Source of the DNA: Candidatus Lokiarchaeum ossiferum
GTDB lineage: Archaea > Asgardarchaeota > Lokiarchaeia > Sigyniarchaeales > Promethearchaeaceae
Direction of reading: 5' to 3'
Length of the DNA stretch: 32,000 bases
Assembly: GCA_025839675.1 (NCBI GenBank)
Contig: CP104013.1
Location: 1,020,001-1,052,000 of the forward strand
A model generated the notes under the pieces. The model saw only the letters and a program-made list of their open reading frames with translations, did no database searches and was not told where the DNA came from. This document shows, piece by piece, positions 7,222-32,000 of the stretch (position 1 is the stretch's first letter; the number at the start of each line of letters is the position of its first letter). The position numbers were made by a program, and so were the translations under genes.

Positions 7222-8073
7222 CTATCTGAAAAAGATAAGTTCCAGAATTTGAAATAATAAATTTCCGCCTAGCGATGTAACCACTACCCCTAGCAGAAAA
7301 AGTGTTATCAAAGGAACCATCGGGCTAATCCAAATTTCTTGCAATCCCAATTTATGAAAATCCATGTAAATTTCTTTCATTTCTTCATGAGTATATTCAT
7401 CTTCATAACTTAGATCAAAAATAGCTTCCCAGGATTCATCATCTTCATTATAATCTTCGAGTAATTTTACAAACTTGTAATCAACAAGATTTTCAACAGA
7501 AATTCGTCTCCCTAACAAAAATAAAAGCAATTTCTTTCCTCGTGATAAATGAGAAAATTCTTGAAACCATGTGGTGGAGGATTTTGAATTTTTTAATACT
7601 TTTTTATACAAAAAATAATTGGATACTCCAAGATAGCATAGAAAAAGAGCAAAAATGAGAAAAGTATTTGTTAAAACAGCAAAAATGGAGGGTGCAATAT
7701 ATAAATTCACACGAGAATAGTGCACCAAAGGAGAATGAAAAGGAAAAATCAAAGCAATGATAAAAATTCCAATTAAATCTGCAGGTCCCATTAAAAAAGT
7801 TCCACCAAAAATTTTTGGGATCATGCAAATGCCAATAAATATTATTGCGACAATCAAATTAATAATAAGAGATAACCAATAATAATTAGGAACGAATATA
7901 AAACCAAGAATATGCAATCCGATTCCAATTGTTCCGCCAATATACCAAATCCAATCATAGACCAAACGTTCTTTGATATCTTGATAGGTTGCAACAGTTA
8001 ACACTAAGAAACACACAGAAAATTGAATCCAATAAAGAATATTCAGAGTTAGCATATCTTCCAACACCATCAT
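7222..8073 (-). CDS. A24-family aspartyl prepilin/preflagellin peptidase-like membrane protein (FlaK/PibD-like) with an acidic soluble insert
   Basis: Polytopic membrane protein. A first Asp context (TYQDIKERLVYD) sits in TM1 and a second (FLMGPADLIG) resembles the GxGD motif. An insert of about 90 aa (KKVLKNS...LEDYNEDDESWEAIFDLSYEDEYTHEEMKEIYMDF) precedes the last TM, as in FlaK. Confidence 0.7.
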   Translation of the reverse strand: MMVLEDMLTLNILYWIQFSVCFLVLTVATYQDIKERLVYDWIWYIGGTIGIGLHILGFIFVPNYYWLSLIINLIVAIIFIGICMIPKIFGGTFLMGPADLIGIFIIALIFPFHSPLVHYSRVNLYIAPSIFAVLTNTFLIFALFLCYLGVSNYFLYKKVLKNSKSSTTWFQEFSHLSRGKKLLLFLLGRRISVENLVDYKFVKLLEDYNEDDESWEAIFDLSYEDEYTHEEMKEIYMDFHKLGLQEIWISPMVPLITLFLLGVVVTSLGGNLLFQILELIFFR

Positions 8074-8079
8074 ATGAAA

Positions 8080-9423
8080 TTATTCGTTTTTATCCATAGC
8101 CAGAGAATTTCGCGACTCGAAAGAAAGCCGTTTATCCAACTTCTCAATTAATTCACCTAAAGTTTTGCCGGTGACATTTTGGCTGAGAAAAGCAACCGAA
8201 GATACCCCATATTTAAGAATATTGACTGCTTTTACAACTAAAGCCATATTCGTTTTGGTATGTATCACAGAATAATCCATTTCACCAAAACCAGGTGTTT
8301 CTTTTAAAATGGACTGTTGATTTTTAACAAGGTTGATAATATGAGAAATATCATCCAAATCCATATCTGCAGTGGCTTTTTGGCTGATTACGACATTATC
8401 ATCGTTTAGAAGAAAAATGGCACTTTTTGCTTGATCTTTAATTACATCATTGCAAAAATCTTCTATGGAATTACCTACTTTTGATAGATCATTCAAGATA
8501 ATTTGCATTGATCTAAATAGAGTGTGAATTAGTTCGGGTTGAATCGAAGTGAATATTGTTTTGATCCCATAGTCATTATCCAAGATCTGTTTGATTTCCA
8601 AGAATTGTTTTGCCTTCTCTTGATTTGTTCCAGCAAGTAAATCAATCTTATGGCAAAAAGCATAGATTGTTGCATTTGCCGCGGTGGAATTTTTGGCATT
8701 TATAATACTATCCAAATTTCCAAGAACCTTTTCTCGCTCTTCTTCCCAATTTTTTACATCAAAAATATATATTACGATATCAGATTCTTCAAAAGCGATC
8801 ATTCGTTCAAAACTATTCTGAGGAGAAACATATGATTCAAATTCTTGGCCAGAAGAATCCACAATACCTACTTCTGCATCGAGCCATGAATACACAAAAT
8901 GGGCTAATCCACGAGTCGGTTCTGGTGCAGCTTGTCCAAGTAATATGCTAGGATCTACACCATCAAAGAATGCTTTTTTAATACACGTTTTTCCTGCTGA
9001 AGGAAATCCAATAAACAATAATTTTCGAGAAGCTTGTTGTTGATAAAATAGTTTGGCGAATTCTGAAAAAGTCAGAGCCCGATCTCGTTTATTCCGATTA
9101 TAAAATGATTCTAATTGATCGGCTAATAAACCATAAAATTCTTTCACAGTATTGGTCTCATCAGCAGCTAATATTAACACAATCAATTCAATTTCATTGG
9201 TACCATAGATATGTTTTGTATTTACCAAAATAATTTTGTCATTATACTTTAATTCTAATACACCCTCGTCTTCACTATCCGTTCCAGTGATAATATTTAC
9301 GATCTTTTGGATTAAACCACGTGATATATTGAATTCTTTCGGATAAGAACTATCTAAAAATCCTTTGAACTTGTTCGAGGGAGGTGTTTCTTTTACAGTA
9401 ATTAATGCAAGACCTAAGGGCAT
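8080..9423 (-). CDS. Three-domain small GTPase: N-terminal longin-like alpha/beta domain, Rag/Gtr1-like GTPase, C-terminal roadblock domain
   Basis: G1 is GFPSAGKT (8986-9009). G3 is VDSSGQE. G4 is HKID (8641-8652), the HKxD variant typical of Rag/Gtr1. VIYIFDVKN, IYAFCHKIDLL and TSIQPE parallel RagA LIYVFDVES, IFCLVHKMDLV and TSIWDE (recalled from memory). The C-terminal ~120 aa (AKSAIFLLNDDNVVISQ...MALVVKAVN) are roadblock-like. The start is moved to ATG 9423 (MPLGLALI); the track's TTG at 9528 adds 35 hydrophobic, low-quality residues. Confidence 0.8.
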   Translation of the reverse strand: MPLGLALITVKETPPSNKFKGFLDSSYPKEFNISRGLIQKIVNIITGTDSEDEGVLELKYNDKIILVNTKHIYGTNEIELIVLILAADETNTVKEFYGLLADQLESFYNRNKRDRALTFSEFAKLFYQQQASRKLLFIGFPSAGKTCIKKAFFDGVDPSILLGQAAPEPTRGLAHFVYSWLDAEVGIVDSSGQEFESYVSPQNSFERMIAFEESDIVIYIFDVKNWEEEREKVLGNLDSIINAKNSTAANATIYAFCHKIDLLAGTNQEKAKQFLEIKQILDNDYGIKTIFTSIQPELIHTLFRSMQIILNDLSKVGNSIEDFCNDVIKDQAKSAIFLLNDDNVVISQKATADMDLDDISHIINLVKNQQSILKETPGFGEMDYSVIHTKTNMALVVKAVNILKYGVSSVAFLSQNVTGKTLGELIEKLDKRLSFESRNSLAMDKNE

Positions 9424-9734
9424 ACTAAGGTTGTATCGAAAAATTATAAATATAAAATTATGGTTGGAAAGTTGTTTTAAAGAAATTCCAAGAAAGTTTC
9501 CAACAAAACTAAAATAAAACCACGTCAATTCAAAAATTAAATTTTATTTACTGTCATTTTTTCTTGGTAAAATGAAAATAGGAAAAACTGTTAAACTTTT
9601 AACCATAAACTAAAATATTAACATAAGTGATTGATTATTTGAATAAATGAATGTCTTCACAAATATCTAAAGCGCAATAGATAGACATCAAGAAATTTCT
9701 TATTTTCAATTTTAACTATTTTAAGGGTATTCTC

Positions 9735-10993: not shown

Positions 10994-11659
10994 TTAATCG
11001 AATATAATAAAAGGTGATTTATATTCACAAATCAGATATCTTAATTCTTTATTAAGAGTTTTCATGTTATCTCCCATAATTTTTACAGTACGTCCCATTC
11101 CTGCATTTATTTGATCCAACTTGGCATTAATTTCAGCCATCGAAATTGGAGGAATTGTTTGATTTGAAAAATCTACATTAACCGATTCCATAGAAAGAGG
11201 TTGTGTAGGAGTTGAAGATGATGAATTTGTAATAGGACGCATCAAAGGGGGTGCAGGCATTGGAGGCCTCATTGTGGTAGATTCTTGAGATAAACGATCT
11301 AATTGTAAAGGAGTTACATTTGATGTGGCAGGTGATTGGGATTGTGGAGTTGAAGCAGAAGCAGAAAGATTCGAAATTGGGGTTTGTATGGGTGGTGACA
11401 CACTTTGAGGGGAAGTATCTTTTTTTGGAGCCATTTGTGCAAGGAGATTCGGACTAATTTGAGCATAGTTTGTCTCTCCATATTTTAGATCATAATCATC
11501 TGGATGACGAATTTTCATGTGGCTAACAAGAAAATCTCGCTTATCAAACCCGGTTCCACAAAATTCACAAGTATATTTCTTCTTTTTCTTCGCATACAAC
11601 TTCTTAACTTTAGATGCAATTCGAGTTTTAATTTCATCATCAGTTAAATCGTTTTCCAT
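10994..11659 (-). CDS. C2H2 zinc-finger protein with a long S/T/P/Q-rich disordered region and a C-terminal helix
   Basis: YTCEFCGTGFDKRDFLVSHMKIRH fits Y-x-C-x2-C-x3-F-x5-L-x2-H-x4-H exactly (11504-11575). A lysine-rich stretch (KKKKK) lies just upstream. The central ~110 aa are low complexity. Confidence 0.75.
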   Translation of the reverse strand: MENDLTDDEIKTRIASKVKKLYAKKKKKYTCEFCGTGFDKRDFLVSHMKIRHPDDYDLKYGETNYAQISPNLLAQMAPKKDTSPQSVSPPIQTPISNLSASASTPQSQSPATSNVTPLQLDRLSQESTTMRPPMPAPPLMRPITNSSSSTPTQPLSMESVNVDFSNQTIPPISMAEINAKLDQINAGMGRTVKIMGDNMKTLNKELRYLICEYKSPFIIFD

Positions 11660-11702
11660 AAGTAATCATCTCATTTTCAATCAGAGAAAGATGTATCGCA
11701 GA

Positions 11703-12254
11703 TTATAGACTGGAAAATACAAAAGCCATCAGTTCGTTACGCGATGAGCCTTTCCCCATTTTTTCCATGAAGACCATTAATTTAAGTTGGGTATATAGCT
11801 TTTCATAATCATCGACAGAATCATTTGTCCCAGAAATCAATGTCATTAACATTGGATCCGTCTTGGATGTATGGGAAAGTATGAATTGTATGCACATTTT
11901 TATTTGTTTTAAGACAGATTTTTCCAACTCTGTACATGCCGGTAAGAGATATGAGGTGTCAGGCATATAAGACATCGGTTGTTCAACTCGTACTTGTTCT
12001 GGAGGGGGAGTTGGAGGTTCTTGAACGGGAGGTTCATAGGTATCTGGAGGAGGTTGTGCATTTACATCTTTCCATCGATCCAGAATACTATTGAGATTTT
12101 GATTATTTTGACGTTTTGTTGTGGTGCGTTTCCTGGTATTTTCTGCTTTAGAACTTAACATACGCAACTTATCTTCGAGGGATTCCAGTTCACTCATCAA
12201 TAATTGCTTATTTTCCCGTGATTTTTGCAGACCAGTTATTTTTTTTGACATCAT
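11703..12254 (-). CDS. Hypothetical protein: N-terminal coiled coil, basic stretch, poly-proline linker, C-terminal helical domain
   Basis: ATG-ATG start. Heptad-like LMSELESLEDKLRMLSS. PPPDTYEPPVQEPPTPPPEQ lies at 11997-12056. The C-terminal ~90 aa look folded and helical. No family recognised. Confidence 0.55.
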   Translation of the reverse strand: MMSKKITGLQKSRENKQLLMSELESLEDKLRMLSSKAENTRKRTTTKRQNNQNLNSILDRWKDVNAQPPPDTYEPPVQEPPTPPPEQVRVEQPMSYMPDTSYLLPACTELEKSVLKQIKMCIQFILSHTSKTDPMLMTLISGTNDSVDDYEKLYTQLKLMVFMEKMGKGSSRNELMAFVFSSL

Positions 12255-12282
12255 AGCACACCGTATAAGAGAGTAGAAGATT

Positions 12283-13044
12283 TTATCGTTTTTTATTCAT
12301 CATCATAGACATAAAACCTGCGAGCCATGCAGAATTTCCTTGATCATCGTTTGTCGGTTGCATACCCCCTCCAAACATTTTCGGTTCAAATAAGTATTGC
12401 AATAACTCATATTCGTGTTGAAATTTATCAAGTTTTTTAATTAATAAATCTAAGTATTCCTTGGACCCTTTTTCATAAGTAGAAAGTTTTTCTTCGTTTT
12501 CATTATCATTTTTCTTCAAAAGATTTGTTAGAAGAAGTGTAGTAACTGCATCTTGTCCACCCGCCATACCTGCAGCATTAGCAGCACTAGCAATCCCACC
12601 CATTCCATTAGACTTAGTACCAGCCGAATTACCTGTAGAATCCCCAGTAGGTAAAACAGAACCACTATCTCCACCACTGGCTAAACTTCCTCCACGACGA
12701 TTGAATAAATCCACAAACATATTCATATTCTTGTTCAAGCTTTCCATAGTAGAATGGACTTCATTGATAGAATCAACTGTTTTTTCAATTTTTGTGAGCA
12801 TTGGTCCTGTTGCTGCATTTGAATTATTTACTGCTCCAGAGGTTGATTGAGAATTAGTTTGAGCTTGGGCTTGGGCGATCTGTTGTGCCATAGAGTTAGC
12901 AGCAGTATTTGTGCTACCTTGTGCTTGGGGCTTGTTTTTCAACAAAGCCGCTTTTACTTGATCCTTTACAGAGCTTCCAGCACCTTGGTCTTTACCTTTC
13001 AGCATAGTTTTGAGGCCCTGTACGTTTTGGGATTGCTCAGCCAT
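12283..13044 (-). CDS. Hypothetical low-complexity (Q/A/G/S/N-rich) protein with two helical segments and a C-terminal amphipathic tail
   Basis: ATG at 13044 (MAEQSQ); the track's GTG at 13056 adds 4 aa. Long Q/A and G/S tracts flank the helices KIEKTVDSINEVHSTMESLNKNMNMFVDLF and KEYLDLLIKKLDKFQHEYELLQYLF. The tail is WLAGFMSMMMNKKR. Confidence 0.55.
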   Translation of the reverse strand: MAEQSQNVQGLKTMLKGKDQGAGSSVKDQVKAALLKNKPQAQGSTNTAANSMAQQIAQAQAQTNSQSTSGAVNNSNAATGPMLTKIEKTVDSINEVHSTMESLNKNMNMFVDLFNRRGGSLASGGDSGSVLPTGDSTGNSAGTKSNGMGGIASAANAAGMAGGQDAVTTLLLTNLLKKNDNENEEKLSTYEKGSKEYLDLLIKKLDKFQHEYELLQYLFEPKMFGGGMQPTNDDQGNSAWLAGFMSMMMNKKR

Positions 13045-13742
13045 TGAAATTAACACCGGATGTTATATTTTTTGAGATTATGCAAATCTAAACGATTTAT
13101 CTATATTACAGCATGTAATATCTCAATAATATATCTTAATCCTTCACTTTTTACTAATAGAGAGGAATAATCTACACTATTTGTATCTGCATTATAAGAA
13201 AAATTCCAAAAAAGAATCATATAAGAAACATTATGTGTTTTTACATCAAATCTAACAAAAGATAGTTGGAGTTTATATCCGACGCATACAATCCCATCTA
13301 TTGCATTCATTAAACAGGTTTACTTTAGAAATATTCGACGATTTTTTCCAAAAATAGTTCTATAAATATGATTGCTTTTTTGGTATACATAAGAACTATC
13401 ATCGAAGGAAAAAAAAGTGCAGAAATATTCCAAACTTTTCAAGTCGCAGGAAGCGAAGAAACATGATGTCCTTCGCTTAAATGAACTTCTTATGAGATAT
13501 GAAGAAGCTCCGATTGATTTAATTGAAAAAACTATAAAACGAAAGCTCGTCTAGTATTTTTTTTCATTTCATTATCTTTTTTTTATGCTTGTTTTGCAAT
13601 ATTGTCTTTTTATTCTCAGAAATACAATAATTCATAAAGTCGATTTTTGATCATCCGAGAATTCCGAGATGTAAGAGAAGCGAAACAGTTTTTAACTTCT
13701 CAGTAAAATTACTAGTAAAAACCTTTTCAAAGTTGATCAAAA

Positions 13743-16068: not shown

Positions 16069-17463
16069 TTATTTGACCATGAAGTAAAAACGTGTGCCCA
16101 ATCGGAATGATTTATCAATTTTGGCCATTTTCCGCTCCACCAGGAAATCAAGCGCTTCTTTCACGCGAAATTCAGTCCAACCCAATTTGGTCATGATTTC
16201 TTCTTTTGTCAGAACCCCGGTGGTTTGAGCAAATTTCAATAAACGAGAAGGATCTTCAGTCAATTCTAAAGGATGGAATAATACCATATAATATCCCGTT
16301 GGAAGCTTTTGTACTTCAGAAATCAGCCCACTTTTGACCATTTTTTTAACAATTTTGACAAATTTTTTCATAGATAAATTCCAATCAGGATAATCTTGGG
16401 ATATTTCAGTATATAAAGCAGCCATGGGTAATTGGACTTCTGCAACTTCTTTTAGTTCGGCACCCTTCATTAAGACATATGTACGAATTTGATTTTCAAT
16501 TTCTTTATTCTTCTGCTTCCCTTTAAGACCAGCATGTAACTTACGAATACTAGTTTGTAAATCTTCAGCAAGTTCCTCAGCATGAACACCATTTTCATGA
16601 TAAACGCGAAGTAGAACGGTTCCATGATCTTTATGACAATTCATTTGATATTCAATTAACTCTTTTGGGACACCTTGATCATGGATAACAAAAGATCGAG
16701 ACGTAGTAAATCCCTTCTTTTTCTCATCAGTAATTTTCTCATCAAAAAGTTCATAGCTGGTAAATAATCCAACGATGCTTTGATCCAACATCTTGGGATC
16801 GGAAGAATCAAAGTTCAAATCCAAACTTTCAGTTGCTTGAACCATGTTGCTACTTTTCACATTAGCAATTAAATTTTGCAATATATTGAGCTTCATTTGT
16901 TCTGTTCGATCTATTTTTTGCTGTTCTAAAGCATTTTCCATGTGTTCTAATTCATCATCAGCATATTTTTCAAGAAAAATTTGAGTCGTAGGGCCTATTT
17001 CAACAGGCAATAAAGGCTGAGCTTTAATTGCAAACCCTCGAAGAATCATTATACCTTTACCCGCATCAATCGCACTTTTAACTTCTGTCCCAACATCATA
17101 TATATTACCCAAGAGACCATCCTTGATGCTTGCTGTCCAATTCCCAGGTGTAATCGCCAGATTCTTTTCAGAAATGCCAAATGTGATCTCTTCAGCGTGG
17201 GATAAATTATATGGATATAAATCGACTGTATCATTTTGACTGAGAATTCCTGAGAGGTATTTATCAACTTCCAAGAGTGGAATGTCATTATGAGAAGAAT
17301 CCTCCACAATTTCAAGAATTTTTACAATAAATGAATAGGTTTTCGATCGAATTGTGGAAATTGCAATATAAGTTTGACCAGAAGAAATATTCGGAGTTGA
17401 TTCAGAGCAATGAAGAATTGCTTGCTTCCGAGTTTGAGGGCTAAGTTTTACTTTCATTTTCAT
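16069..17463 (-). CDS. CDC48-N-like (double-psi barrel/beta-clam) domain, a central alpha/beta region and C-terminal tandem winged-helix domains; last gene of the E1-JAMM operon
   Basis: The N-terminal ~175 aa (16939-17463) end in QPLLPVEIGPTTQIFLEK, paralleling VAT/CDC48-N ...PSKVPVEIGEETKIEIREE (recalled). The C-terminus (about 16072-16461) has two WH-like units: FVKIVKKMVKSGLISEVQKLPTGYYMVLF and VLTKEEIMTKLGWTEFRVKEALDFLVERKMAKIDKSFRLGTRFYF. The second strongly recalls EAP30/Vps22-type WH sequences. Confidence 0.6.
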   Translation of the reverse strand: MKMKVKLSPQTRKQAILHCSESTPNISSGQTYIAISTIRSKTYSFIVKILEIVEDSSHNDIPLLEVDKYLSGILSQNDTVDLYPYNLSHAEEITFGISEKNLAITPGNWTASIKDGLLGNIYDVGTEVKSAIDAGKGIMILRGFAIKAQPLLPVEIGPTTQIFLEKYADDELEHMENALEQQKIDRTEQMKLNILQNLIANVKSSNMVQATESLDLNFDSSDPKMLDQSIVGLFTSYELFDEKITDEKKKGFTTSRSFVIHDQGVPKELIEYQMNCHKDHGTVLLRVYHENGVHAEELAEDLQTSIRKLHAGLKGKQKNKEIENQIRTYVLMKGAELKEVAEVQLPMAALYTEISQDYPDWNLSMKKFVKIVKKMVKSGLISEVQKLPTGYYMVLFHPLELTEDPSRLLKFAQTTGVLTKEEIMTKLGWTEFRVKEALDFLVERKMAKIDKSFRLGTRFYFMVK

Positions 17464-19928: not shown

Positions 19929-20210
19929 ATGAAAATTATGAGTGATAATACGATAATGTTCTATTTTACAACTCGGGTTGGTCCAGAGAAACGTCAGATC
20001 CCTTTTCCCGCAAGTCCTTCCTTAGATTTTGTAGATGTAATTGAAGAAGTATGTAAAAAATTTGGAGTTTCAATGCAAACTCTAAGTTTGGCCACCCCGA
20101 CAGGATTAGTTCTAACAAATACAGATTTAATGGAGTCTGTATCAAAAGTTGCGGATAAATATGGATTTGCCTTTGAAATTATTGATCAAGGGGTTGTCGG
20201 TGGAAATTAA
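19929..20210 (+). CDS. Ubiquitin-fold modifier, UFM1-like, ending in ...VVGG-N
   Basis: 93 aa. It aligns without gaps to human UFM1 (recalled) over the N-terminal block (FYFTT..P......P.S..F..VI.....KF.V...T...T..G) and the C-terminal block (VADKYGFAFEIIDQGVVG vs VFLKHGSELRIIPRDRVG). Gly-Gly lies at 20199-20204, followed by one Asn and the stop. Confidence 0.8.
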   Translation: MKIMSDNTIMFYFTTRVGPEKRQIPFPASPSLDFVDVIEEVCKKFGVSMQTLSLATPTGLVLTNTDLMESVSKVADKYGFAFEIIDQGVVGGN

Positions 20211-20830: not shown

Positions 20831-21922
20831 TTAAGAAACCTCTTGCCGAATATCGAATAAACTAACCCATTGATAATAAACTTGATAACATTCAGGACAG
20901 AAAATCACTGCCCTGGTCACCAATTGATTATTCTTCACCTTATAAGACCCATCTTCTTGATCGAAATTCTTGAGAATGTTCTCCGATTTGCAGCGAGGAC
21001 AAACATTAATATCTTGAAAATCAATGAAACGAAAATCAGGATTGAGAATTTTTTCCACCTTATCCTTTTCTTTCTGCATTTGTACAATTTTGTCCATCTC
21101 TTGCATGCCTTCATCATCTGCATGAATAGATTCGGTACTTTCTGAATCAATTTTTCCCAGTTCCCGAATTATCTGCCCATCTTTGATGATTAAAGTCCGA
21201 TCCGCAATTTTTCGGACTTCTGGGTTGTGAGTGACTATCACAATAGATTTATCCGGATTTTTTTGAATGAACTGTCTAAAAATGTTCATAATTTTTTCTG
21301 ACGAGATAGAATCAATATTACCCGTAGGTTCATCGGCCAAAATAATAGTGGGATTATTTGCAAATGCCATTGCAATTGCCACTCGCTGTTTTTCCCCACC
21401 TGATAGCGTAAAAGGACGATGATGTGCACGATCTTCTAACCCGATTTCTTTAATGAGCTCATGAACTCGAGTTCGTTTATACTCATTGCTCTTCTTCGCA
21501 ATAGTCATAGGCAATTCTACATTTCCTTCTGCGGTCAAACTGGGAATAAGGTTAAAAAATTGAAAGACTATACCAATTTCATTTTGCAAAATTTGCTGCA
21601 CTCCTTCATCCTTCATACGAGTAACATCAAACCCACGAATGAACACATGCCCTGCACTGGCTTGATCCATCCCAGATATGACGTTTAAAAGAGTTGTTTT
21701 TCCTGATCCTGAAGGACCCATAATCACAACAATCTCTCCAGCGTAAATATTCATATTGACTCCCTTAAGGGCGACTACTTCCAAATTACCTTGTTGGAAG
21801 ATGCGAAAGACATTTTGACAACTAATGTTCACTTGTCGTTGTTTTAAAGGGAGACTCTTATCATCGGACGCATTTATAAAGCCTTCATCCATTTTAGATG
21901 CTTCAGTTTCATTTTTTATCAT
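20831..21922 (-). CDS. ABC transporter ATP-binding protein (MacB/LolD-type) with a C-terminal extension of about 110 aa ending in a zinc ribbon; copy 1
   Basis: Walker A GPSGSGKTT, Q-loop, signature LSGGEKQRVAIA, Walker B ILADEPTGNID, H-loop VTHN. The tail has CPRC...x33...CPEC (20888-21001). Confidence 0.95.
   Translation of the reverse strand: MIKNETEASKMDEGFINASDDKSLPLKQRQVNISCQNVFRIFQQGNLEVVALKGVNMNIYAGEIVVIMGPSGSGKTTLLNVISGMDQASAGHVFIRGFDVTRMKDEGVQQILQNEIGIVFQFFNLIPSLTAEGNVELPMTIAKKSNEYKRTRVHELIKEIGLEDRAHHRPFTLSGGEKQRVAIAMAFANNPTIILADEPTGNIDSISSEKIMNIFRQFIQKNPDKSIVIVTHNPEVRKIADRTLIIKDGQIIRELGKIDSESTESIHADDEGMQEMDKIVQMQKEKDKVEKILNPDFRFIDFQDINVCPRCKSENILKNFDQEDGSYKVKNNQLVTRAVIFCPECYQVYYQWVSLFDIRQEVS
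20835..21825. repeat. Direct repeat copy A (991 bp, 100% identical to 30445-31435)
   Basis: I compared the two copies block by block by eye and every 60-nt line is identical at an offset of 9610. The first mismatches are at 20834/30444 and 21826/31436. Confidence 0.9.
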
Positions 21923-21943: not shown

Positions 21944-24900
21944 TTAAAATTGATGGAAATAGTCGGTATATTTCCTTTTTGACTCCAAATAATAGAGAAG
22001 GAGATATATCAGAAAGGAAAGTAGTGGAATAATCGCAATAATCCCAACTAAATCAATTGCGTTCCAAAAAATAGGGGATCTATATGATGAACCTTCAAAA
22101 TTGACCAATTTAATTATTTTGGAGAGTACAATTCCAAAAATGGAACCACTGATGATTCCATTAAATATTGGAATGAAGAATATGACAAAAATTTCCATAA
22201 ATGTCAGCGCTAATAACCCTTTCTTCCCCACACCTCGAGCTAGTAGTGTTCCATGATAATGCTTGTCCATTTTCCGTAAGTAAACCAATAGTATTCCAAT
22301 TCCAATCGCCATCAGAATTCCAATGATGATGAATTCAAAATAAAAAATTACATATGTTCCTGAGGAAAATTGTATTATATCGAGAGCCATATCATTCCAC
22401 TGATCTTGATATATACTGACATAAGTATGACCATTAAAATTATCTGTGACTTCACTGATCTTGTTAGATAGTCCACTTTGATCCAAAGTGCAATTTTCAT
22501 TCAAATTCATTAAAGTAAAAAATTGCAAACTATGCAAATATGAAGAATTCGTATTGACCGAACTTAGATCTATAAGCATGAACTCTTCTTCATTATAATA
22601 ACTTGAACTTTTAGAAGTGTAAAAACCCGGAAGAGTGTCAATTACATCAAATATAATTGCTACAATCTCGTCCAATTGCATTCGATTTGTTAATGGGTCA
22701 TAATAATAATGATTAATTGAAGTTTTCTCATAAAGGGATTTTAGATGAGCTTTTTGATATTGTGAATTAACGATTACACCTGGTAATTTTCCAGATGTAA
22801 GATTATTATTATACAGAGTCAAATTACGTAATCTATTATAAAGATTCTTTTCTGGTTCAAGTTTTTCTGGTTCTGATATAAGATCTAGATATTTGGAAAC
22901 ATTTGTAATATATTTCGTTGTTTCATGATACACTCTAAAATAAGCGGGACTTCCAGAATCTACAAACGTTGTGACAGCTTTGGTACTCATGTTTTGATTG
23001 TCAGTTAATGTCAAATTTAATAACTGATCTTCCATTGAATCAATATCTTCTGCACAGCGGATTTTTGAGGAAGAATCAAGCCCATTTTCTTCGTTAATTG
23101 GAATTTGAGCAAAACTAATCTTACAATCAGCTCCAATTTTTAAGTTACTATCAATAATTTCTGTTCTTACGGATGTCTGAAAATAAATATTAGAGAAAGT
23201 CAAGAGGGAGACAAAAATGCCTATAAGATACATAGTCATTATATAAGGCTTTTTTTTTATTATATTCAAGGCAACTAATTTTGATTTACTTTTTGAATAA
23301 ATAGAAACGATTATCTTTGATAACCGTCCTAAACGACTAGGTTTTTCATAAGCGATTAGGTGAATTATTCCAACCACCATTAAAACAGGTGAAAGTATGG
23401 ATAGTACTGCAAACGGCTGGCTGAAAGGAGAAATTAGTTCAGAAATCCAGATTAATGTATCATTGGTTCCTTTTCTCCCATTATCAACGATTAAGTAAAA
23501 GATCAGGGGAAAAAGAGAGAATAATATTAAAATAATGCCAAATCTATGAACTTTCCCCTTTTCATTCGAAGAAACAGTATCTTTGTATAAATTCTGATGT
23601 TTTAGAATTCTATCAATTATTAATGGTTTTTCTTTATTGCTTGATAACCTGCGAGCTGTTTCAGCGGGTTTTTTTTTTGATTTTTCAATATCATCAAGAA
23701 AATATGGGTTTTTTTCTTCAATATTGCCAGAAAAGAAGGGTAGATCATTTAAAGTAACATTCTTGGTTTTTGAACTGTTAAATAAAGTTATTTCGTCATA
23801 TGTGATATCAAATGATTCTGAATTTACCTTACTAAGTAGTTCTTTTGTGGATACATTCTTTAGATATACCAATGAAAAAACATTGGCAACTTGGGTTATA
23901 ATGATTCCGGCGAGAAATGTCAAAAGGACACTATTAAATGAAAAAAAAATAGGTAAATTTAGTGAAACTTGATTCCAGCTAACAAGACTTAATAAAGTAG
24001 TACGAAATGAATAAAATACGATAATCCCACAGAAACAGGCAAAAATAGATGAAGAAACTCCGATAAAAATTCCTTCAATAATCAATTGAATAGAAAGCAT
24101 TTTTGTTGAAGCACCTTTACTTTTCAAGAGAAGAAATTCTTCAATCCGATTTTTCTGCTCAACTTTTAAGGCAAATGCTCCAATAAAAATCGCAAAGATA
24201 AGAATGGGAAGAACAATTAACTGAAGACTGATCCGGATATCCTTCAATTGAGTTGAAAATTCGCATAAAGCGAGATAGAGAGAATTATCAAAGTCCATAT
24301 AATCAGGTAAAGTAAGAGAAAATTCGGATCCAGCTTCTCCAATATTGTTTGTGATTGTAGAGAGGAAATTAAAAGAGATAGAACTTCTATCTGAAATTAA
24401 TGAACACCCTCGAATGGGAAAAAAGTTGATTATTGAAAAATCAACGTTGATTCGAGCTAAAACATCTTCTAATGGATTGGATGAAATGTTTTTTGATGTA
24501 TTCAAGAATGTAAACAGAGGAGGATTGATTTTTGGATCTTCTAAAGAATTTTCTGATACAGGTGAAATTTTCTGGGTTAGTTCATCGAAGTGATAGCCAA
24601 AAAAATAATTGTCTTGTGAAAATTTTAAATGGGCCAATTTAGATGCATAAATACCGACAACTTCAAATTTTGAAAAATTTAGAGTGTGTACCTCATCTCG
24701 TAATGTTAATTGATCATCATCACCGTCATAAAGCGATGAATAAGCACAAATTTCAATCATTTGATCTTTTCCAATAGATAAATTCATCTTTTGTGCAAAA
24801 TTGATATCAATTAAAATTTGATCCATAGAAGTGGGAAAGGTACCATTTAATATTTTAAAATATCGATTGAAGCGCGCAGATTCATAAAAATTTGTCGAAT

Positions 24901-25315
24901 AGGCATTGTATTGCAATTGAGAAGAAAAATATTTATTCAGAACTGGTCTTTGGGAAGTTGGGATTTGGGTATAATTTTTGAAGAAAGCAACTCTACGATA
25001 ATCTTGGATGATCTCAAAGGAATATTGTTCAATAATATCAATATGCTTGTTAAATTCAGAGAATGAAGGGATAAAATTTTCAATTTTTTCACTTTCCAAG
25101 GTATAAGTTGAATTATTATCTAAAGTTCGATAAAAAATGTTAAAATCATCAATTTGTCCAAAGGATTTTTGAAGGGTTTCTTGTTTATATGAATCTGTAA
25201 ATATATAGATACCAGAAACCATACTTAAGGCGATCCCTAATCCGATAACAATTAACACACTTTTCTTTATACTTTTTCTTCCTTGTTTGAAATAATATTT
25301 TAAACGATTGTTCAT
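21944..25315 (-). CDS. Very large ABC transporter permease with two FtsX/MacB-type 4-TM modules, each preceded by a large extracytoplasmic domain
   Basis: An N-terminal TM is followed by a ~330-aa N-x-S/T-rich ectodomain. The first FtsX block is EEFLLLKSKGASTKMLSIQLIIEG. A basic cytoplasmic linker follows, then a second TM and ectodomain. The second FtsX block is LLARGVGKKGLLALTFMEIF. The gene lies 21 nt upstream of the ATPase. Confidence 0.85.
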   Translation of the reverse strand: MNNRLKYYFKQGRKSIKKSVLIVIGLGIALSMVSGIYIFTDSYKQETLQKSFGQIDDFNIFYRTLDNNSTYTLESEKIENFIPSFSEFNKHIDIIEQYSFEIIQDYRRVAFFKNYTQIPTSQRPVLNKYFSSQLQYNAYSTNFYESARFNRYFKILNGTFPTSMDQILIDINFAQKMNLSIGKDQMIEICAYSSLYDGDDDQLTLRDEVHTLNFSKFEVVGIYASKLAHLKFSQDNYFFGYHFDELTQKISPVSENSLEDPKINPPLFTFLNTSKNISSNPLEDVLARINVDFSIINFFPIRGCSLISDRSSISFNFLSTITNNIGEAGSEFSLTLPDYMDFDNSLYLALCEFSTQLKDIRISLQLIVLPILIFAIFIGAFALKVEQKNRIEEFLLLKSKGASTKMLSIQLIIEGIFIGVSSSIFACFCGIIVFYSFRTTLLSLVSWNQVSLNLPIFFSFNSVLLTFLAGIIITQVANVFSLVYLKNVSTKELLSKVNSESFDITYDEITLFNSSKTKNVTLNDLPFFSGNIEEKNPYFLDDIEKSKKKPAETARRLSSNKEKPLIIDRILKHQNLYKDTVSSNEKGKVHRFGIILILFSLFPLIFYLIVDNGRKGTNDTLIWISELISPFSQPFAVLSILSPVLMVVGIIHLIAYEKPSRLGRLSKIIVSIYSKSKSKLVALNIIKKKPYIMTMYLIGIFVSLLTFSNIYFQTSVRTEIIDSNLKIGADCKISFAQIPINEENGLDSSSKIRCAEDIDSMEDQLLNLTLTDNQNMSTKAVTTFVDSGSPAYFRVYHETTKYITNVSKYLDLISEPEKLEPEKNLYNRLRNLTLYNNNLTSGKLPGVIVNSQYQKAHLKSLYEKTSINHYYYDPLTNRMQLDEIVAIIFDVIDTLPGFYTSKSSSYYNEEEFMLIDLSSVNTNSSYLHSLQFFTLMNLNENCTLDQSGLSNKISEVTDNFNGHTYVSIYQDQWNDMALDIIQFSSGTYVIFYFEFIIIGILMAIGIGILLVYLRKMDKHYHGTLLARGVGKKGLLALTFMEIFVIFFIPIFNGIISGSIFGIVLSKIIKLVNFEGSSYRSPIFWNAIDLVGIIAIIPLLSFLIYLLLYYLESKRKYTDYFHQF

Positions 25316-25341: not shown

Positions 25342-28300
25342 TTAAAACTTGTGGAAAAATGTAGAGATTTTTTTCCTCGCTTCATTTTTATAAATAAAAT
25401 ATGAAATTCCAAACGATAGTCCAATTATTAGACTAATTATTCCAATAATATCAAATAGATTGATAAAAATAGGTAAATCAATTGCGCTTTTTGATGGATC
25501 TAACGTTCGATCCATTTTAACAAGAACTGTCGAAAATACAACACCAATTCCCAGTCCAAAAAGAATAGCAATAAAGAATAATACAAAAAGTTCAGTTAAA
25601 ATCAAACTTAATAATCCTTTTTTACCAAATCCACGGGCCAATAAAACCCCATTAAAATATTTCTTTTCTCGTTCTAGAGCAATTAATACAATTGATAAAC
25701 CAAATGCAATTAGAATTCCAACAATAATAAAATCAATATATAACACGGTATAGAAACCAAGAATATCTAGGGATGTGTCTAATTCTAGCATCTTAAAATC
25801 TTGATCGTAAAAATCCAGTTCCTTATATAAAGTTGAAAAGTCACTTGTACAATTTTCAATATATGCTTCTAAAATTTTGGGATCTGACTCCACGGTGGGG
25901 TCAATATCAATCATCTGATAAATATGGCTTGAAGGGAGACAATAATCAGGTATCTCCAGAAACGAAGCATCGAATAGAATGACTTCATCATTTTTAGTTT
26001 GATAAACATATTCAGTATATAATCCAGGAAAAATATTGAGGGAACTTAGAATTTTGCATCGTAATTTCGAAAAATAAGGAGTATGAGTATCTAAATCATA
26101 AGATCTGTGTTTGACATCCAGTAAATCCCCCACTTTAACACCATTATTCTCTAAGAAAAGATCATTTACAATAATACCAGGGACCTGACAAGATGTTAAA
26201 GGAATACTCATAAGTTCTCCTATTGCAGGTTCTCCTTTTGAACTTCGATTATTATCATCTTGATTATCTATTGATGGTTCTTCTTCAATCTTTAGAAAAT
26301 CATTATTATATTTAATTACTTCTTTAAATGATTGCTTAAAAGCAGAACTAGGATAATTTTTATTATTTTCCCCAATTATTTTGAAATATTTCTCAAATTC
26401 AATAACATAAATAGACCAATCCGGATTATTTACATCATAATCTTCTTTGTAATAGCTCAAAACATTATTTATGAGATATTTATCAGTCTCAGGAACTTGA
26501 TAATTCAATAAAGTGTTTTCAAGATTATGCAACTCTGAAATTTTTGTTATATTTTCTGAATATTTATGAAGCGTTGCAGTGATATCAGCTCCAACAATAT
26601 AATTTTCACTTAAATAATTATAACGTGCATTTGAATTCAAATAAATATTTGAAAAAGAAAAGAGAGAGGAAAATAGAGCTAATACTAAAATTAATATTTT
26701 ATATTGTTTTCTTCTGAGCATTTCAATGCCAACTAAAAAACTCCTTTCCTTTATGAATAATTGAGCAATTCTTTGAGATAATTTGGAGAATAGTATTGGG
26801 ATTTCAACGGTAATTAATCTTATTATTCCCCAAACCAAAAATACTGGAGATATCACAATGATAACGTTTAATGCGATAAACATAGCATCTTGTTGCAAGA
26901 ATTCGACGACTTCAGTCAATGAATCAGACAAAACTCGAGATTTTGAATAATATATAAAAAGATAAATGCAAGTTGGAATAAAAGAACTAAAAATCAATAG
27001 AAATGAGTATTTAATTGGCTTCTTTTTTCTTTTAATTGGCGCGGTCTTTTTTTTATTTGAATCTAAGCCCAATTTTCTTAAATTTTCCTCATTTTTGCTT
27101 AAAAGGGCAAAATTTTCTCCATAGACCATTCTTTGTTTGAGTTCTTTGATTTTTTCAAAATCTTTTACTTCTTCTTTATGTTCTTTTTTCTTATCACGTT
27201 TTTTCTGTGCTCTTCTTTTTGAATTCCCTTGAGAAATTGTTGATTGATCGTTTAAAATTTTGTTCTCCGAGACAATAAAATCTCTGGTGTATATAGTATT
27301 ACTATCGTCGGATTTTACTTTATTTTTCCGAGTCAATGTTTTTTCATTGAATTCAGCTTCAAAATCTTCTGATCCAATCTGTCCAAGAACTTTGCCGATA
27401 TCTATATCAAGAATAGATTTCAAGGCACTTATACTCCCAATCAAAGATAAAATCTGCCCAATTGCAAAAATTTGTAAAATAATTGACAAGTTTACCGTGG
27501 GTTTAAGGAATTCGGAATAAATTAATATTCCTGTAAAAAATTGCTTAAATGCATAGAAAAAGAAAACCCCAAAAATTAAACTTAATGTTGAAGAAATTAT
27601 TCCAATTAAAGAATTTTCATACAAAAATTCAATGAATGTCATCCTTGGGGGCGCCCCTTTACTTTTGAGTAATAAAAATTCTTCAGCACGAGAAGTTACT
27701 TCTGTTTTTCGTGCAAAAGATCCAAAAAGAATGGCTGCAATAATCAACGGAATACTTAAGACAATAAGTACTCCTCGAAGGAAAAGGGTATCAAGATATA
27801 CTTTTTTCATTATTGGATAGAGTATAGAAGTAAGTTCAAACGAATCAGGCAAATTTGTCTCAATCACATTATCTTCAGAATTCAATTGTTTCGAAAAAGC
27901 ATTATAATTATGAAATCCAACATTATTCCTGTTAATAATTCCAAAAAAACCAAAAAAGGCTTCTGAGACATGAGTTAGGGGATTATTATCAATTGTTTGA
28001 TCAAACTGATAAATTAGTTCTTGATATGCAAATTTATCATCTTGTGAAGAAAAATTATGGACAGTTAAAATAGGTGCACTTTCAGGAAATTCTTGAGTAT
28101 ATTCAATTACTCCCGTTTCTGGATCATATTGATAATTTACTTCAAAATTTTTTGTGAGAAATCGATATTGTACCTTATTTGAAGCGTAAACACCAACAAT
28201 AGTGGAGTTAAGGTGCACTCCATTATACTTTTCATTAAAGAAAGTTGATTTCAAAGGATGGATAGTCATAGGATCACCATAACTATCGAAAAATTGTTCA

Positions 28301-28902
28301 AAACCTTGAAGATTTTTTTCTAAGCATATGCTTAGATCTTGGTATCCATCCAATGTTATATTAAAATATTCCATGTAGGAGATATCAAGAATAATTTCAT
28401 TAGAAGAGAGTGGTAATCGTCCTTCCAGCAACGTGAAAAAGGAATTAAACCTATCAGACTGATAAAAAGAATTTTCGATCTGAATTACAGAGAAAGGAAG
28501 GACGGATAATTGAGATTCTTCTGTAGGATCAAAGGGCAGCGATCTATTTAAAGCGAGTTTTAAAAATTCAGAATGAAAACACCCATAGTCAAATAATTGA
28601 TCAAGTTCCATATCCCTTTCTTCTATCATTTTTTTTGCGGAAACGATTTTCTCTTGATTTTTGGCAAATGCCGCAGTTCCATTATAAGAATCAGCACTAA
28701 CATCCACCGTAAAATCAACGACGTTTGTGAGTTTTCGATCAAGTAATTCTCGTTCATAAGAAAGGGAATATATATTTAGACCAAAAATCACACTAATTGT
28801 TAAAGAAAATGCAATGATAATTAAAATATTACTTCGTGTACTATGATATGCTCGTTTAATGTAATAGGATATTCGGGATCTAATTTTTACAACACCTTTC
28901 AC
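25342..28902 (-). CDS. Second very large double-FtsX/MacB-type ABC permease (paralog of 21944-25315)
   Basis: Same architecture as the paralog: EEFLLLKSKGAPPRMTFIEFLYEN, a lysine-rich linker (KRRAQKKRDKKKEHKEE...KRKKKPIK) and LLARGFGKKGLLSLILTELF. The start is GTG at 28902, with no nearby in-frame ATG. The gap to the next permease is 26 nt. Confidence 0.85.
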   Translation of the reverse strand: MKGVVKIRSRISYYIKRAYHSTRSNILIIIAFSLTISVIFGLNIYSLSYERELLDRKLTNVVDFTVDVSADSYNGTAAFAKNQEKIVSAKKMIEERDMELDQLFDYGCFHSEFLKLALNRSLPFDPTEESQLSVLPFSVIQIENSFYQSDRFNSFFTLLEGRLPLSSNEIILDISYMEYFNITLDGYQDLSICLEKNLQGFEQFFDSYGDPMTIHPLKSTFFNEKYNGVHLNSTIVGVYASNKVQYRFLTKNFEVNYQYDPETGVIEYTQEFPESAPILTVHNFSSQDDKFAYQELIYQFDQTIDNNPLTHVSEAFFGFFGIINRNNVGFHNYNAFSKQLNSEDNVIETNLPDSFELTSILYPIMKKVYLDTLFLRGVLIVLSIPLIIAAILFGSFARKTEVTSRAEEFLLLKSKGAPPRMTFIEFLYENSLIGIISSTLSLIFGVFFFYAFKQFFTGILIYSEFLKPTVNLSIILQIFAIGQILSLIGSISALKSILDIDIGKVLGQIGSEDFEAEFNEKTLTRKNKVKSDDSNTIYTRDFIVSENKILNDQSTISQGNSKRRAQKKRDKKKEHKEEVKDFEKIKELKQRMVYGENFALLSKNEENLRKLGLDSNKKKTAPIKRKKKPIKYSFLLIFSSFIPTCIYLFIYYSKSRVLSDSLTEVVEFLQQDAMFIALNVIIVISPVFLVWGIIRLITVEIPILFSKLSQRIAQLFIKERSFLVGIEMLRRKQYKILILVLALFSSLFSFSNIYLNSNARYNYLSENYIVGADITATLHKYSENITKISELHNLENTLLNYQVPETDKYLINNVLSYYKEDYDVNNPDWSIYVIEFEKYFKIIGENNKNYPSSAFKQSFKEVIKYNNDFLKIEEEPSIDNQDDNNRSSKGEPAIGELMSIPLTSCQVPGIIVNDLFLENNGVKVGDLLDVKHRSYDLDTHTPYFSKLRCKILSSLNIFPGLYTEYVYQTKNDEVILFDASFLEIPDYCLPSSHIYQMIDIDPTVESDPKILEAYIENCTSDFSTLYKELDFYDQDFKMLELDTSLDILGFYTVLYIDFIIVGILIAFGLSIVLIALEREKKYFNGVLLARGFGKKGLLSLILTELFVLFFIAILFGLGIGVVFSTVLVKMDRTLDPSKSAIDLPIFINLFDIIGIISLIIGLSFGISYFIYKNEARKKISTFFHKF

Positions 28903-30440: not shown

Positions 30441-31532
30441 TTATGAAACCTCTTGCCGAATATCGAATAAACTAACCCATTGATAATAAACTTGATAACA
30501 TTCAGGACAGAAAATCACTGCCCTGGTCACCAATTGATTATTCTTCACCTTATAAGACCCATCTTCTTGATCGAAATTCTTGAGAATGTTCTCCGATTTG
30601 CAGCGAGGACAAACATTAATATCTTGAAAATCAATGAAACGAAAATCAGGATTGAGAATTTTTTCCACCTTATCCTTTTCTTTCTGCATTTGTACAATTT
30701 TGTCCATCTCTTGCATGCCTTCATCATCTGCATGAATAGATTCGGTACTTTCTGAATCAATTTTTCCCAGTTCCCGAATTATCTGCCCATCTTTGATGAT
30801 TAAAGTCCGATCCGCAATTTTTCGGACTTCTGGGTTGTGAGTGACTATCACAATAGATTTATCCGGATTTTTTTGAATGAACTGTCTAAAAATGTTCATA
30901 ATTTTTTCTGACGAGATAGAATCAATATTACCCGTAGGTTCATCGGCCAAAATAATAGTGGGATTATTTGCAAATGCCATTGCAATTGCCACTCGCTGTT
31001 TTTCCCCACCTGATAGCGTAAAAGGACGATGATGTGCACGATCTTCTAACCCGATTTCTTTAATGAGCTCATGAACTCGAGTTCGTTTATACTCATTGCT
31101 CTTCTTCGCAATAGTCATAGGCAATTCTACATTTCCTTCTGCGGTCAAACTGGGAATAAGGTTAAAAAATTGAAAGACTATACCAATTTCATTTTGCAAA
31201 ATTTGCTGCACTCCTTCATCCTTCATACGAGTAACATCAAACCCACGAATGAACACATGCCCTGCACTGGCTTGATCCATCCCAGATATGACGTTTAAAA
31301 GAGTTGTTTTTCCTGATCCTGAAGGACCCATAATCACAACAATCTCTCCAGCGTAAATATTCATATTGACTCCCTTAAGGGCGACTACTTCCAAATTACC
31401 TTGTTGGAAGATGCGAAAGACATTTTGACAACTAACGTTCACTTGCCTTTGTTTCAAGGGGACTTGTTTGTCTTGCGGTGTTACATTAGCGTCTACATCC
31501 GTTTTGGATGATTCATTTTCATTTTCGATCAT
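30441..31532 (-). CDS. ABC transporter ATP-binding protein with zinc-ribbon tail; copy 2
   Basis: The protein is identical to copy 1 over about 330 C-terminal residues. Only the first ~33 residues differ (MIENENESSKTDVDANVTPQDKQVPLKQRQVNVS vs MIKNETEASKMDEGFINASDDKSLPLKQRQVNIS). Confidence 0.95.
   Translation of the reverse strand: MIENENESSKTDVDANVTPQDKQVPLKQRQVNVSCQNVFRIFQQGNLEVVALKGVNMNIYAGEIVVIMGPSGSGKTTLLNVISGMDQASAGHVFIRGFDVTRMKDEGVQQILQNEIGIVFQFFNLIPSLTAEGNVELPMTIAKKSNEYKRTRVHELIKEIGLEDRAHHRPFTLSGGEKQRVAIAMAFANNPTIILADEPTGNIDSISSEKIMNIFRQFIQKNPDKSIVIVTHNPEVRKIADRTLIIKDGQIIRELGKIDSESTESIHADDEGMQEMDKIVQMQKEKDKVEKILNPDFRFIDFQDINVCPRCKSENILKNFDQEDGSYKVKNNQLVTRAVIFCPECYQVYYQWVSLFDIRQEVS
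30445..31435. repeat. Direct repeat copy B (991 bp, 100% identical to 20835-21825)
   Basis: See copy A. The flanks on both sides are only partly similar or unrelated. Confidence 0.9.
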
Positions 31533-31556: not shown

Positions 31557-32000
31557 TTAAAATTGATGGAAATAATCCGTATAATTTTTTTTAGATTCAA
31601 AATAGTAGACAAGAAGATATATAATTATTGAGAAAACCGGTATCAATAATCCCACCAATAATATATCCATAAATTTGAAAAAAATGGGTGTTTTTATGTC
31701 TTGAAAGTTCAATTCAACAGCCCCTAACAATTTAGTAACAAAAATACCCTCAATTGCTCCGCTAAAAATTCCAGTGAATAAGGAAATCGTAAAAACCATC
31801 AGTGTCTCAGTTAATAAAAGCTTTAAAACACCTTTTTTTCCATATCCACGAGCTAAAAGGACACCTTGATTAAATTTATCCGCTTTCCTCAAAAATACTA
31901 ATAATATTGCAACACCAATAGCAATAATTAATCCAATAGCAATAAAATCCAAATATAGCACGGAATAAATCGTATTGGTTAAAGCACCTTCAAATATATT
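31557..32000 (-). CDS. C-terminal part of a third double-FtsX-type permease (the CDS continues beyond the window end)
   Basis: The reverse frame stays open to base 32000 (NIFEGALTNTIYS precedes the track's GTG at 31961). LLARGYGKKGVLKLLLTETL and the tail ESKKNYTDYFHQF parallel 21944-25315 (ESKRKYTDYFHQF) at roughly half identity. Confidence 0.8.
   Translation of the reverse strand, partial: NIFEGALTNTIYSVLYLDFIAIGLIIAIGVAILLVFLRKADKFNQGVLLARGYGKKGVLKLLLTETLMVFTISLFTGIFSGAIEGIFVTKLLGAVELNFQDIKTPIFFKFMDILLVGLLIPVFSIIIYLLVYYFESKKNYTDYFHQF

Follow-up and report, generated by a model that had tools for sequence, protein, structure and literature searches.

Compact operons that encode a ubiquitin-like protein (Ubl) together with its activating enzyme (E1), its conjugating enzyme (E2) and a JAMM protease have been described both in archaea, as in the ubiquitin operon of Caldiarchaeum (PMC6043591), and in bacteria, as in the Cap2/Cap3-type sets of cyclic oligonucleotide-based anti-phage signalling systems (CBASS). 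Here we analyze a stretch of 32,000 nucleotides from the archaeon Candidatus Lokiarchaeum ossiferum (contig CP104013.1, positions 1,020,001 to 1,052,000; hereafter the window), in which a cassette of the same compact layout adjoins a gene for a 464-residue protein, designated X throughout this work. In all these operons, including the present one, the JAMM protease would process the Ubl precursor. The Caldiarchaeum operon belongs to the ubiquitin type, whereas the E1, E2 and Ubl of the Lokiarchaeum cassette appear to be of the UBA5, UFC1 and UFM1 type and are not accompanied by a RING E3. The Asgard cassette further differs from the Caldiarchaeum and CBASS-type operons in its extra parts, namely X, a protein with a pair of winged-helix (WH) domains and an SPFH protein, and from the eukaryotic UFM1 pathway in having a JAMM protease in the place of UFSP.

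According to Picchianti et al. (PMC10183829), UFM1 and UFC1 are confined to eukaryotes and only UBA5, UFL1 and DDRGK1 have prokaryotic roots; the later, structure-based study of Köstlbacher et al. (PMC12962969) reported UFM1 relatives in nine Asgard clades. In the window and about a dozen related loci, a single operon encodes a UBA5-like E1 and a UFC1-like E2 along with the Ubl. [quoted passage not shown] (PMC9192718) showed that HeimAB125_14050 is a Heimdallarchaeal Vps22 that forms the ESCRT-II stalk, and Vps36 was reported lacking in Asgard archaea in the same work. The catalogue of Asgard ESCRT diversity by Makarova et al. (PMC10936438) includes a VAT_N domain on a haloarchaeal Vps4-like ATPase as well as links to SPFH proteins, and the architecture of X is not described in the sections consulted. 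A literature search found no published description of the X family or of the whole cassette. The results presented below indicate that X is an apparently non-enzymatic member of an uncharacterized, Asgard-only family that recurs as an extra component of the cassette, and we tentatively propose that it serves as a Ubl-binding adaptor or receptor. They also connect, at the genomic level, a UFM1-type tag with winged helices of the ESCRT-II type and with SPFH proteins.

Domain architecture of X

X shares 99% identity with a Ca. Lokiarchaeum ossiferum protein annotated as hypothetical, and its full-length relatives, all of them from Lokiarchaeial or Promethearchaeota metagenomes and annotated without exception as hypothetical, share 34-84% identity with it. 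The homologues begin with MKVKL two codons downstream of the predicted start, so the true start of X may be at 17457 (462 residues). An AlphaFold2 (AF2) model built on eight homologues (mean predicted local distance difference test, pLDDT, 80.6; predicted template modelling score, pTM, 0.49), in which the single domains are trustworthy, resolved the protein into the four segments listed in Table 1.

The N-terminal segment, all-beta in the model, shares the two-subdomain beta fold of the CDC48/p97/VAT N domains, a double-psi beta barrel plus a beta-clam. Its top matches in the PDB were the N domains of p97, CDC48 and VAT (Foldseek E 6e-8), with a TM score to p97-N of 0.67 when normalized on the 170-residue target over ~180 aligned columns; VAT-N (1cz4) was matched with E 3.8e-6, and the UFD1 N domains of giant viruses likewise appeared among the matches. 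The sequence signal towards VAT-N is weak but consistent with the fold match. When compared by hhalign with VAT-N, the X family profile aligned over 105 columns, among them those of the PVEIG..T.I stretch, with an E value of 1.2e-4, and a search of the PDB with the profile gave 1cz4 with E 0.27. Pfam CDC48_2 matched five of 40 relatives (best E 9.6e-4), and neither CDC48_N nor CDC48_2 matched X itself at E<=1. The domain contains an ITPGNW linker motif in which G107 and W109 are nearly invariant, and K166, at its end, is nearly invariant across the 40 relatives.

What follows the N domain distinguishes X from CDC48, p97 and VAT, which continue with the AAA+ modules D1 and D2. No AAA+ ATPase module was matched in X by Pfam or NCBIfam, and the model shows instead a helix, an alpha/beta domain and the WH domains, a zinc ribbon standing in place of the latter in most relatives. 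In the long helix, K183 is invariant in alignments of 8 and of 12 sequences and R186 is nearly invariant across the 40 relatives. Residues 196-318, modelled alone with 32 homologues, reached a pLDDT of 93.2 and a pTM of 0.85.

The two WH units lie at residues 344-395 and 399-461 of the model, and the complete WH1-WH2 core of the ESCRT-II subunit Vps22 (EAP30/SNF8) aligns with the last 129 residues of X, which is devoid of the N-terminal helical part present in Vps22. The pair matched residues 103-235 of HeimAB125_14050 (BLASTP 2e-21; 27% identity over 133 columns), human SNF8/VPS22 in the PDB (phmmer E 1.2e-3) and chain 3cuq_A (Foldseek E 6e-7). The match to Pfam EAP30 (E 3e-4, 21.1 bits) stayed under the cut-off of 26.8 and covered only positions 129-218 of the 219 of the model. 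The closest relatives of the pair are found in a cassette-linked Lokiarchaeial paralogue family of the P0026 type (E 7e-44), rather than in canonical Vps22.

A previous sequence-only reading of this locus had proposed that the N-terminal ~175 residues resemble CDC48/VAT-N, with one segment running parallel to VAT-N, that the last ~130 residues form two WH units of the EAP30/Vps22 type, and that no AAA+ module is present. Structure prediction followed by Foldseek recovered both the CDC48-N fold and the EAP30/Vps22-type pair, the parallel segment proved to lie inside the hhalign alignment, and the lack of an AAA+ module was borne out by the domain searches; the long helix and the alpha/beta domain are additions to that picture. 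Since the core of the family has no invariant cysteine in the conserved-column alignment and no catalytic domain was matched in X by Pfam or NCBIfam, catalysis is not expected and X is apparently non-enzymatic. Its architecture is new, assembled from known domains, and the cassette next to it is a variant of the Ubl-conjugation cassette.

The UFM1-type cassette

The E1 and JAMM genes lie upstream of X on the same strand, separated by gaps of 9 nt and 45 nt, in agreement with the co-operonic arrangement previously proposed. As judged from the sequences, the cassette is of the UFM1 type, with a UBA5-like E1, a UFC1-like E2 carrying a putative catalytic cysteine, a Ubl ending in VG, and a JAMM protease. 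The E1 matched UBA5 far better than the next family in the PDB (phmmer 1.5e-47 versus 1.2e-26 for MoeB). As this match spans residues 11-252 of 258, the enzyme is a bare adenylation domain, too short to include a C-terminal tail such as that of UBA5. In human UBA5 this tail comprises a UFM1-interacting sequence and a UFC1-binding tail.

The similarity of the Ubl to UFM1 emerged from profile comparison. The profile of nine orthologues, compared by hhalign with single sequences, matched human UFM1 with E 8e-5, ubiquitin with 0.11 and URM1 with 0.36; BLASTP against human UFM1 was not significant and Pfam Ufm1 did not match the Ubl. The orthologues share a conserved C-terminal VG followed by 0-3 residues (GN in the window), much as UFM1 ends in VG-SC. 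The E2 matched Pfam UFC1 with E 1.9e-4 (21.6 bits, under the cut-off of 25) and UFC1 in the PDB with E 0.02, and in an alignment with human UFC1 its invariant I-C142-H-D-H falls on the catalytic ICLTDH. The E2 gene begins right after the stop codon of the Ubl gene and in frame with it, and in five relatives both form one continuous open reading frame (ORF) in which the Ubl, ending in IVG, runs straight into the E2 (Table 1). These single ORFs imply that the Ubl is released by proteolysis after VG, presumably by the JAMM protease. The closest PDB match of the latter was a Caldiarchaeum Rpn11-like protein (1.5e-4), and the enzyme is active-looking, since its HSHP...S..D motif reads intact in the translation.

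Searches with PADLOC gave no defence-family match for X, Ubl or E2, and only generic E1 and JAB similarity for the E1 and the JAMM protease. The E2 gene was also found duplicated in tandem in the related locus L009 (11421-12750), as well as in L029, L034 and L026.

The X family and its fusions

Word-indexed profile searches for homologues returned 7 proteins each, and the extent of the family was revealed by an exhaustive profile search with hidden Markov models (HMM), which recovered 245 proteins at E <= 1e-3, falling into two classes. Proteins of the first class, of ~355 residues, match the profile from position 1 to ~317, that is, over the N domain, the helix and the middle domain, and finish with a zinc ribbon (CxxC...CxxC) resembling those of RPB12, LysW and TFIIB. 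Those of the second class have the WH pair alone in common with X and comprise the canonical Asgard Vps22 of ~240 residues (Pfam EAP30 up to 6e-26), a family of ~770 residues and the P0026-type family of 390-520 residues, whose WH pair is by far the nearest to that of X. The conserved core of the family is therefore made up of the N domain, the helix and the middle domain, the WH pair having been added in particular lineages. In most relatives the zinc ribbon takes the place of the pair, which is encoded by a separate neighbouring gene, often beside an SPFH gene, so the description of X as a WH-rich protein in the sequence-only reading does not hold for the family.

All named members are from Asgard archaea, namely Lokiarchaeota, Promethearchaeota, Sigynarchaeota, Kariarchaeaceae and one metagenome-assembled genome (MAG) labelled Heimdallarchaeota. 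A scan of a genome collection with X patterns gave no match, and the broader X alignments held no stretch conserved enough for scanning. The conserved C-terminal ...YRY of the zinc-ribbon relatives was considered as an HbYX proteasome-docking motif and rejected, because the tyrosine is not penultimate and several members run past it. Two proteins of ~770 residues from Promethearchaeota and Hermodarchaeota MAGs (P0066 and P0068) combine a carboxypeptidase-regulatory-like domain with a C-terminal EAP30-type WH pair, and their family entered the search results through this pair only.

The N domain also occurs in a series of fusions. P0052 (L018 3759-6383), of 874 residues, joins a CDC48-N-like domain to a UFM1-like Ubl ending in VVG, a Hint domain and leucine-rich repeats. 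The Hint/intein-like domain starts with a cysteine directly after the VVG, and neither an E1 nor an E2 lies near this gene; self-cleavage by Hint could free or activate the C-terminus of the Ubl without an E1. In P0015 (L011 6859-8532) and P0035, a TIR domain occupies the N-terminus of zinc-ribbon relatives, one of these fusions being adjoined by the cassette in a Sigynarchaeota MAG, and P0040 is a NACHT-type NTPase that bears the CDC48-N-like domain alone at its C-terminus. The association with Ubl, TIR and NACHT partners, in which the N domain takes positions where binding or sensor domains are usually located, suggests that it can stand by itself as a module for binding or sensing, and the TIR and NACHT fusions hint at an immune or conflict use of this module.

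Conserved neighbourhood

Members of the X family lie within 10 kb of the cassette in 12 lineages, which strongly supports the functional tie of X to the E1, E2, Ubl and JAMM set that had been put forward from the sequence of the window. Four lineages carry the fused form in the order E1-JAMM-X with Ubl-E2 nearby (the window and the related loci L001, L003 and L012; 34-49% identity), and zinc-ribbon relatives stand beside the cassette in L009/L034, L011/L032 (with the N-terminal TIR), L015, L016, L019, L031, L033 and L036. The most regular arrangement is seen in L019, L031 and L033, where X, E1, JAMM, Ubl, E2, the WH-pair protein and SPFH follow one another on a single strand; all seven recur in a different arrangement in L036 and L009/L029. 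L004 retains SPFH, X and the WH-pair protein in this order, with the enzymes absent. In L016, X is directly upstream of the E2 and the locus ends at the contig edge. The recurrent WH-pair protein has 390-520 residues, with a long helical N-terminal part and an EAP30-type pair at the C-terminus. As relatives encode the core and the WH pair separately and side by side, the X of Lokiarchaeum appears to be a fusion of two neighbouring genes, a classical sign that their products work together.

Searches anchored on the E2 are unbiased for the presence of X. Among the loci found in this way with a visible E1 and JAMM, six carry X, to which L016 is to be added. X is thus frequent at the cassette locus and not obligatory; it accompanies the cassette in the 12 lineages mentioned above and is lacking nearby in two, which are considered below.

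Table 1. Coordinates of X, its domains, the cassette genes of the window and recurrent gene arrangements in related loci
Feature	Position	Strand	Description and basis
Gene X	16069..17463	-	464-residue ORF; CDC48-N-like domain, helix, alpha/beta domain, Vps22-type WH pair; stop codon 16069-16071
CDC48/p97/VAT-N-type domain, X residues 1-167	16963..17463	-	Two beta-rich subdomains; Foldseek, hhalign
Long single helix, X residues 169-204 (36 residues)	16852..16959	-	Joins N domain to middle domain; DSSP on model
Family-specific alpha/beta domain, X residues 205-335	16459..16851	-	Beta-alpha-beta4-alpha, then second helix; domain model
Tandem winged-helix pair, EAP30/Vps22 (ESCRT-II) type, X residues 336-464	16072..16458	-	BLASTP, Pfam, phmmer, Foldseek
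JAMM/MPN metalloprotease, 477 residues	17509..18942	-	Pfam Prok-JAB 8.6e-10; HSHP...S..D motif; ~330 C-terminal residues without domain assignment
UBA5-like E1, 258 residues	18952..19728	-	PDB phmmer UBA5 1.5e-47; Pfam ThiF 3.9e-52
UFM1-like Ubl, 93 residues, end VVG-GN	19929..20210	+	Orthologue alignment; hhalign
UFC1-like E2, 192 residues	20211..20789	+	Pfam UFC1, PDB search, alignment
WH-pair protein and SPFH/Band_7_1 gene pair	L019 12242-14756; L031 10621-13067; L033 10622-13068; L036 7263-9826; L029 7577-11221; L004 6097-10765		
Ubl-E2 single ORFs	L024 336-1196; L026 1981-2937; L031 9743-10558; L033 9740-10558; L035 4500-5519		

Possible functions of X

The fold shared by the N domains of p97 and UFD1 binds ubiquitin-fold domains, as in the pairs p97-N/UBX and UFD1/ubiquitin. 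By analogy, the CDC48/VAT-N-type domain of X would bind the Ubl, be it free, linked to the E2 or already on a target, and the long helix and the alpha/beta domain would complete the conserved core. The Vps22-type WH pair, acting in cis or in trans, might dock on other WH-pair proteins, such as X itself, Vps22 or Vps25-like proteins; in most relatives this docking pair would be supplied by the separate neighbouring protein, often beside the SPFH protein. The JAMM protease would both trim the Ubl and remove it. Taken together, we tentatively favor X as a Ubl-binding adaptor or receptor of the Asgard UFM1-type cassette, a plausible reading in which we place somewhat less than even confidence. Such a protein may act before conjugation, in an E3-like manner, or after it, as a reader, and the fusions to TIR, NACHT and the Ubl point rather to a protein that binds or reads.

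Several observations weigh against this proposal. The relative placement of the domains in the model of X is unreliable, as its pTM indicates. The middle domain has no informative or significant relative in the PDB (best Foldseek E 6e-3, TM <=0.52); its weak matches were to SRPBCC/Bet v1-like, TBP-like, Flpp3 and PsbP folds. No X relative was found in the available flanks of two cassette lineages, namely that of Sigynarchaeum springense (L014, L025 and L027; up to 10 kb in L014) and L023, and two loci with X relatives, L004 and L020, have no cassette nearby. The SPFH/Band_7_1 partners have no predicted transmembrane helix. Finally, no Vps25, ESCRT-III or Vps4 gene was found in the window or among the genes called at the listed related loci, and hence what ties X to ESCRT is the homology of its WH pair. 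As a separate observation, the L014 cassette is flanked by unannotated proteins of 815, 291 and 566 residues.

UFC1-type E2s need a scaffold E3, and X, a recurrent non-enzymatic gene, is the only candidate for such a role in the cassette. In line with the leading idea of the sequence-only reading, it could thus be a scaffold-type E3 that binds E2~Ubl and the target and promotes transfer, or else a bridge between E1 and E2 that supplies the elements of the UBA5 tail in trans, as might be suspected from the bare adenylation domain of the E1. The position of X directly upstream of the E2 in L016 and a core without conserved cysteine, as fits a scaffold, also point in this direction. The eukaryotic UFL1-DDRGK1 (UFBP1) ligase offers a parallel, being a non-catalytic scaffold of WH domains tied to the UBA5/UFC1/UFM1 cascade as X is to a cassette of this type. 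X has, however, only two WH domains, of the ESCRT-II type, and its conserved core is not built of them. UFL1 and DDRGK had no Pfam match in X (E<=1) and were not among the 25 most frequently matched families over 40 relatives, and no UFL1 or DDRGK1 chain appeared among the 50 PDB fold matches listed for X, so that the analogy to this ligase drawn in the sequence-only reading found no specific support. True relatives of UFL1 and DDRGK1 have moreover been reported elsewhere in Asgard archaea (PMC10183829; 10.1101/2020.10.19.343400), the two cassette lineages without X nearby are awkward for an obligatory E3, and fusions to TIR, NACHT and the Ubl would be less expected of a ligase than of a sensor or reader. 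An E3 or bridging role is therefore possible, though in our view on the unlikely side. We give less credit to the idea that X is what the cassette mainly modifies, or an effector under its control. The Ubl would then be attached to X, e.g. at K166 or K183, and removed by JAMM, switching an associated activity or assembly as in prokaryotic conflict systems. Both lysines are strongly conserved and lie where the N domain ends and the helix begins, the Ubl of P0052 is fused linearly just past this region, TIR and NACHT are fusion partners typical of proteins in immunity or conflict, and the E1 matches E1-E2 models of defence systems. But the conserved lysines may be merely structural, PADLOC knows no family for X, Ubl or E2, and the wide distribution of the cassette in Asgard lineages with stable neighbours suggests a housekeeping role, all of which renders this explanation improbable.

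Two further possibilities appear very remote. WH domains often bind DNA, and weak matches to MarR in two relatives, to TrmB in another two, and to helix-turn-helix models in the Vps22-like P0060 could suggest that X regulates the operon by binding DNA, its N-terminal part sensing a ligand. We regard this as highly improbable, since its pair is specifically of the protein-binding Vps22/EAP30 type, most members of the family have no WH domain, and the pair also exists as a separate protein of 390-520 residues with a long helical N-terminal part. Equally remote is a role of X as an ATPase-less decoy or partner of Cdc48, whose N domain would bind the cofactors or substrates of archaeal Cdc48, diverting Ubl-tagged proteins or handing them over to Cdc48 and the proteasome much as UFD1-NPL4 does, together with the neighbouring MPN protein. 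The fold of the N domain, common to p97 and UFD1, and the adjoining MPN/JAMM gene might evoke this complex, as an MPN domain also occurs in NPL4, which partners UFD1. The MPN domain of NPL4 is inactive, whereas the JAMM motif is intact here; besides, neither Cdc48 nor proteasome genes were found in the window or among the genes called at the listed related loci, and in X neither an SHP nor another Cdc48-binding motif came to light.

A more specific and bolder scheme deserves mention. Vps36 offers a functional analogy, since it joins a ubiquitin-binding N-terminal part to an ESCRT-II WH pair, a parallel that depends on the putative Ubl binding of X; the N-terminal part of Vps36 is a GLUE/PH domain, joined in yeast by NZF fingers, that of X a CDC48-N fold. 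In a seven-part Asgard module of Ubl, E1, E2, JAMM, X, the Vps22-type WH-pair protein and SPFH, X might be the missing Ubl-recognizing subunit of an ESCRT-II-like assembly, a counterpart of Vps36, or else an archaeal UFM1-type ligase. This scheme is unlikely on present evidence; were it true, a UFM1-type tag would have been coupled to a machinery of WH scaffolds or membrane platforms before eukaryotes, without UFL1 and DDRGK1 as its basis. X represents a cloneable candidate for target choice or reading in the archaeal pathway, and these proposals are testable in the cultured host Ca. Lokiarchaeum ossiferum.

Other genes in the window

The window has a G+C content of 27-40% and contains genes typical of Asgard archaea, encoding a Roadblock/LC7 protein (1805-2392), a Gtr1/RagA-type GTPase and KaiC. 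A scan for promoters and terminators was uninformative, as its models are bacterial and the host is an archaeon. The Gtr1/RagA-family GTPase gene stands beside a gene for an archaeal A24-type peptidase (7222-9528, reverse strand), ~6.5 kb from X, and the same pair occurs again in L003 (14963-17184), ~5.6 kb from X.

Three consecutive genes on the reverse strand (10994-13056; 221, 183 and 257 residues) encode low-complexity proteins rich in S/T/P/Q/N without Pfam match, the first of which contains a C2H2-like motif, CEFCGTGFDKRDFLVSHMKIRH. Two ABC ATPase genes (20831-21922 and 30441-31532), 96% identical and encoding 363 residues each, share a CxxC...CxxC C-terminal extension and adjoin genes of FtsX-type permeases (21944-25315, 25342-28902 and 31557-31961), some of them very large (1123 and 1186 residues). 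The repetition suggests that a transporter module was recently duplicated in tandem.

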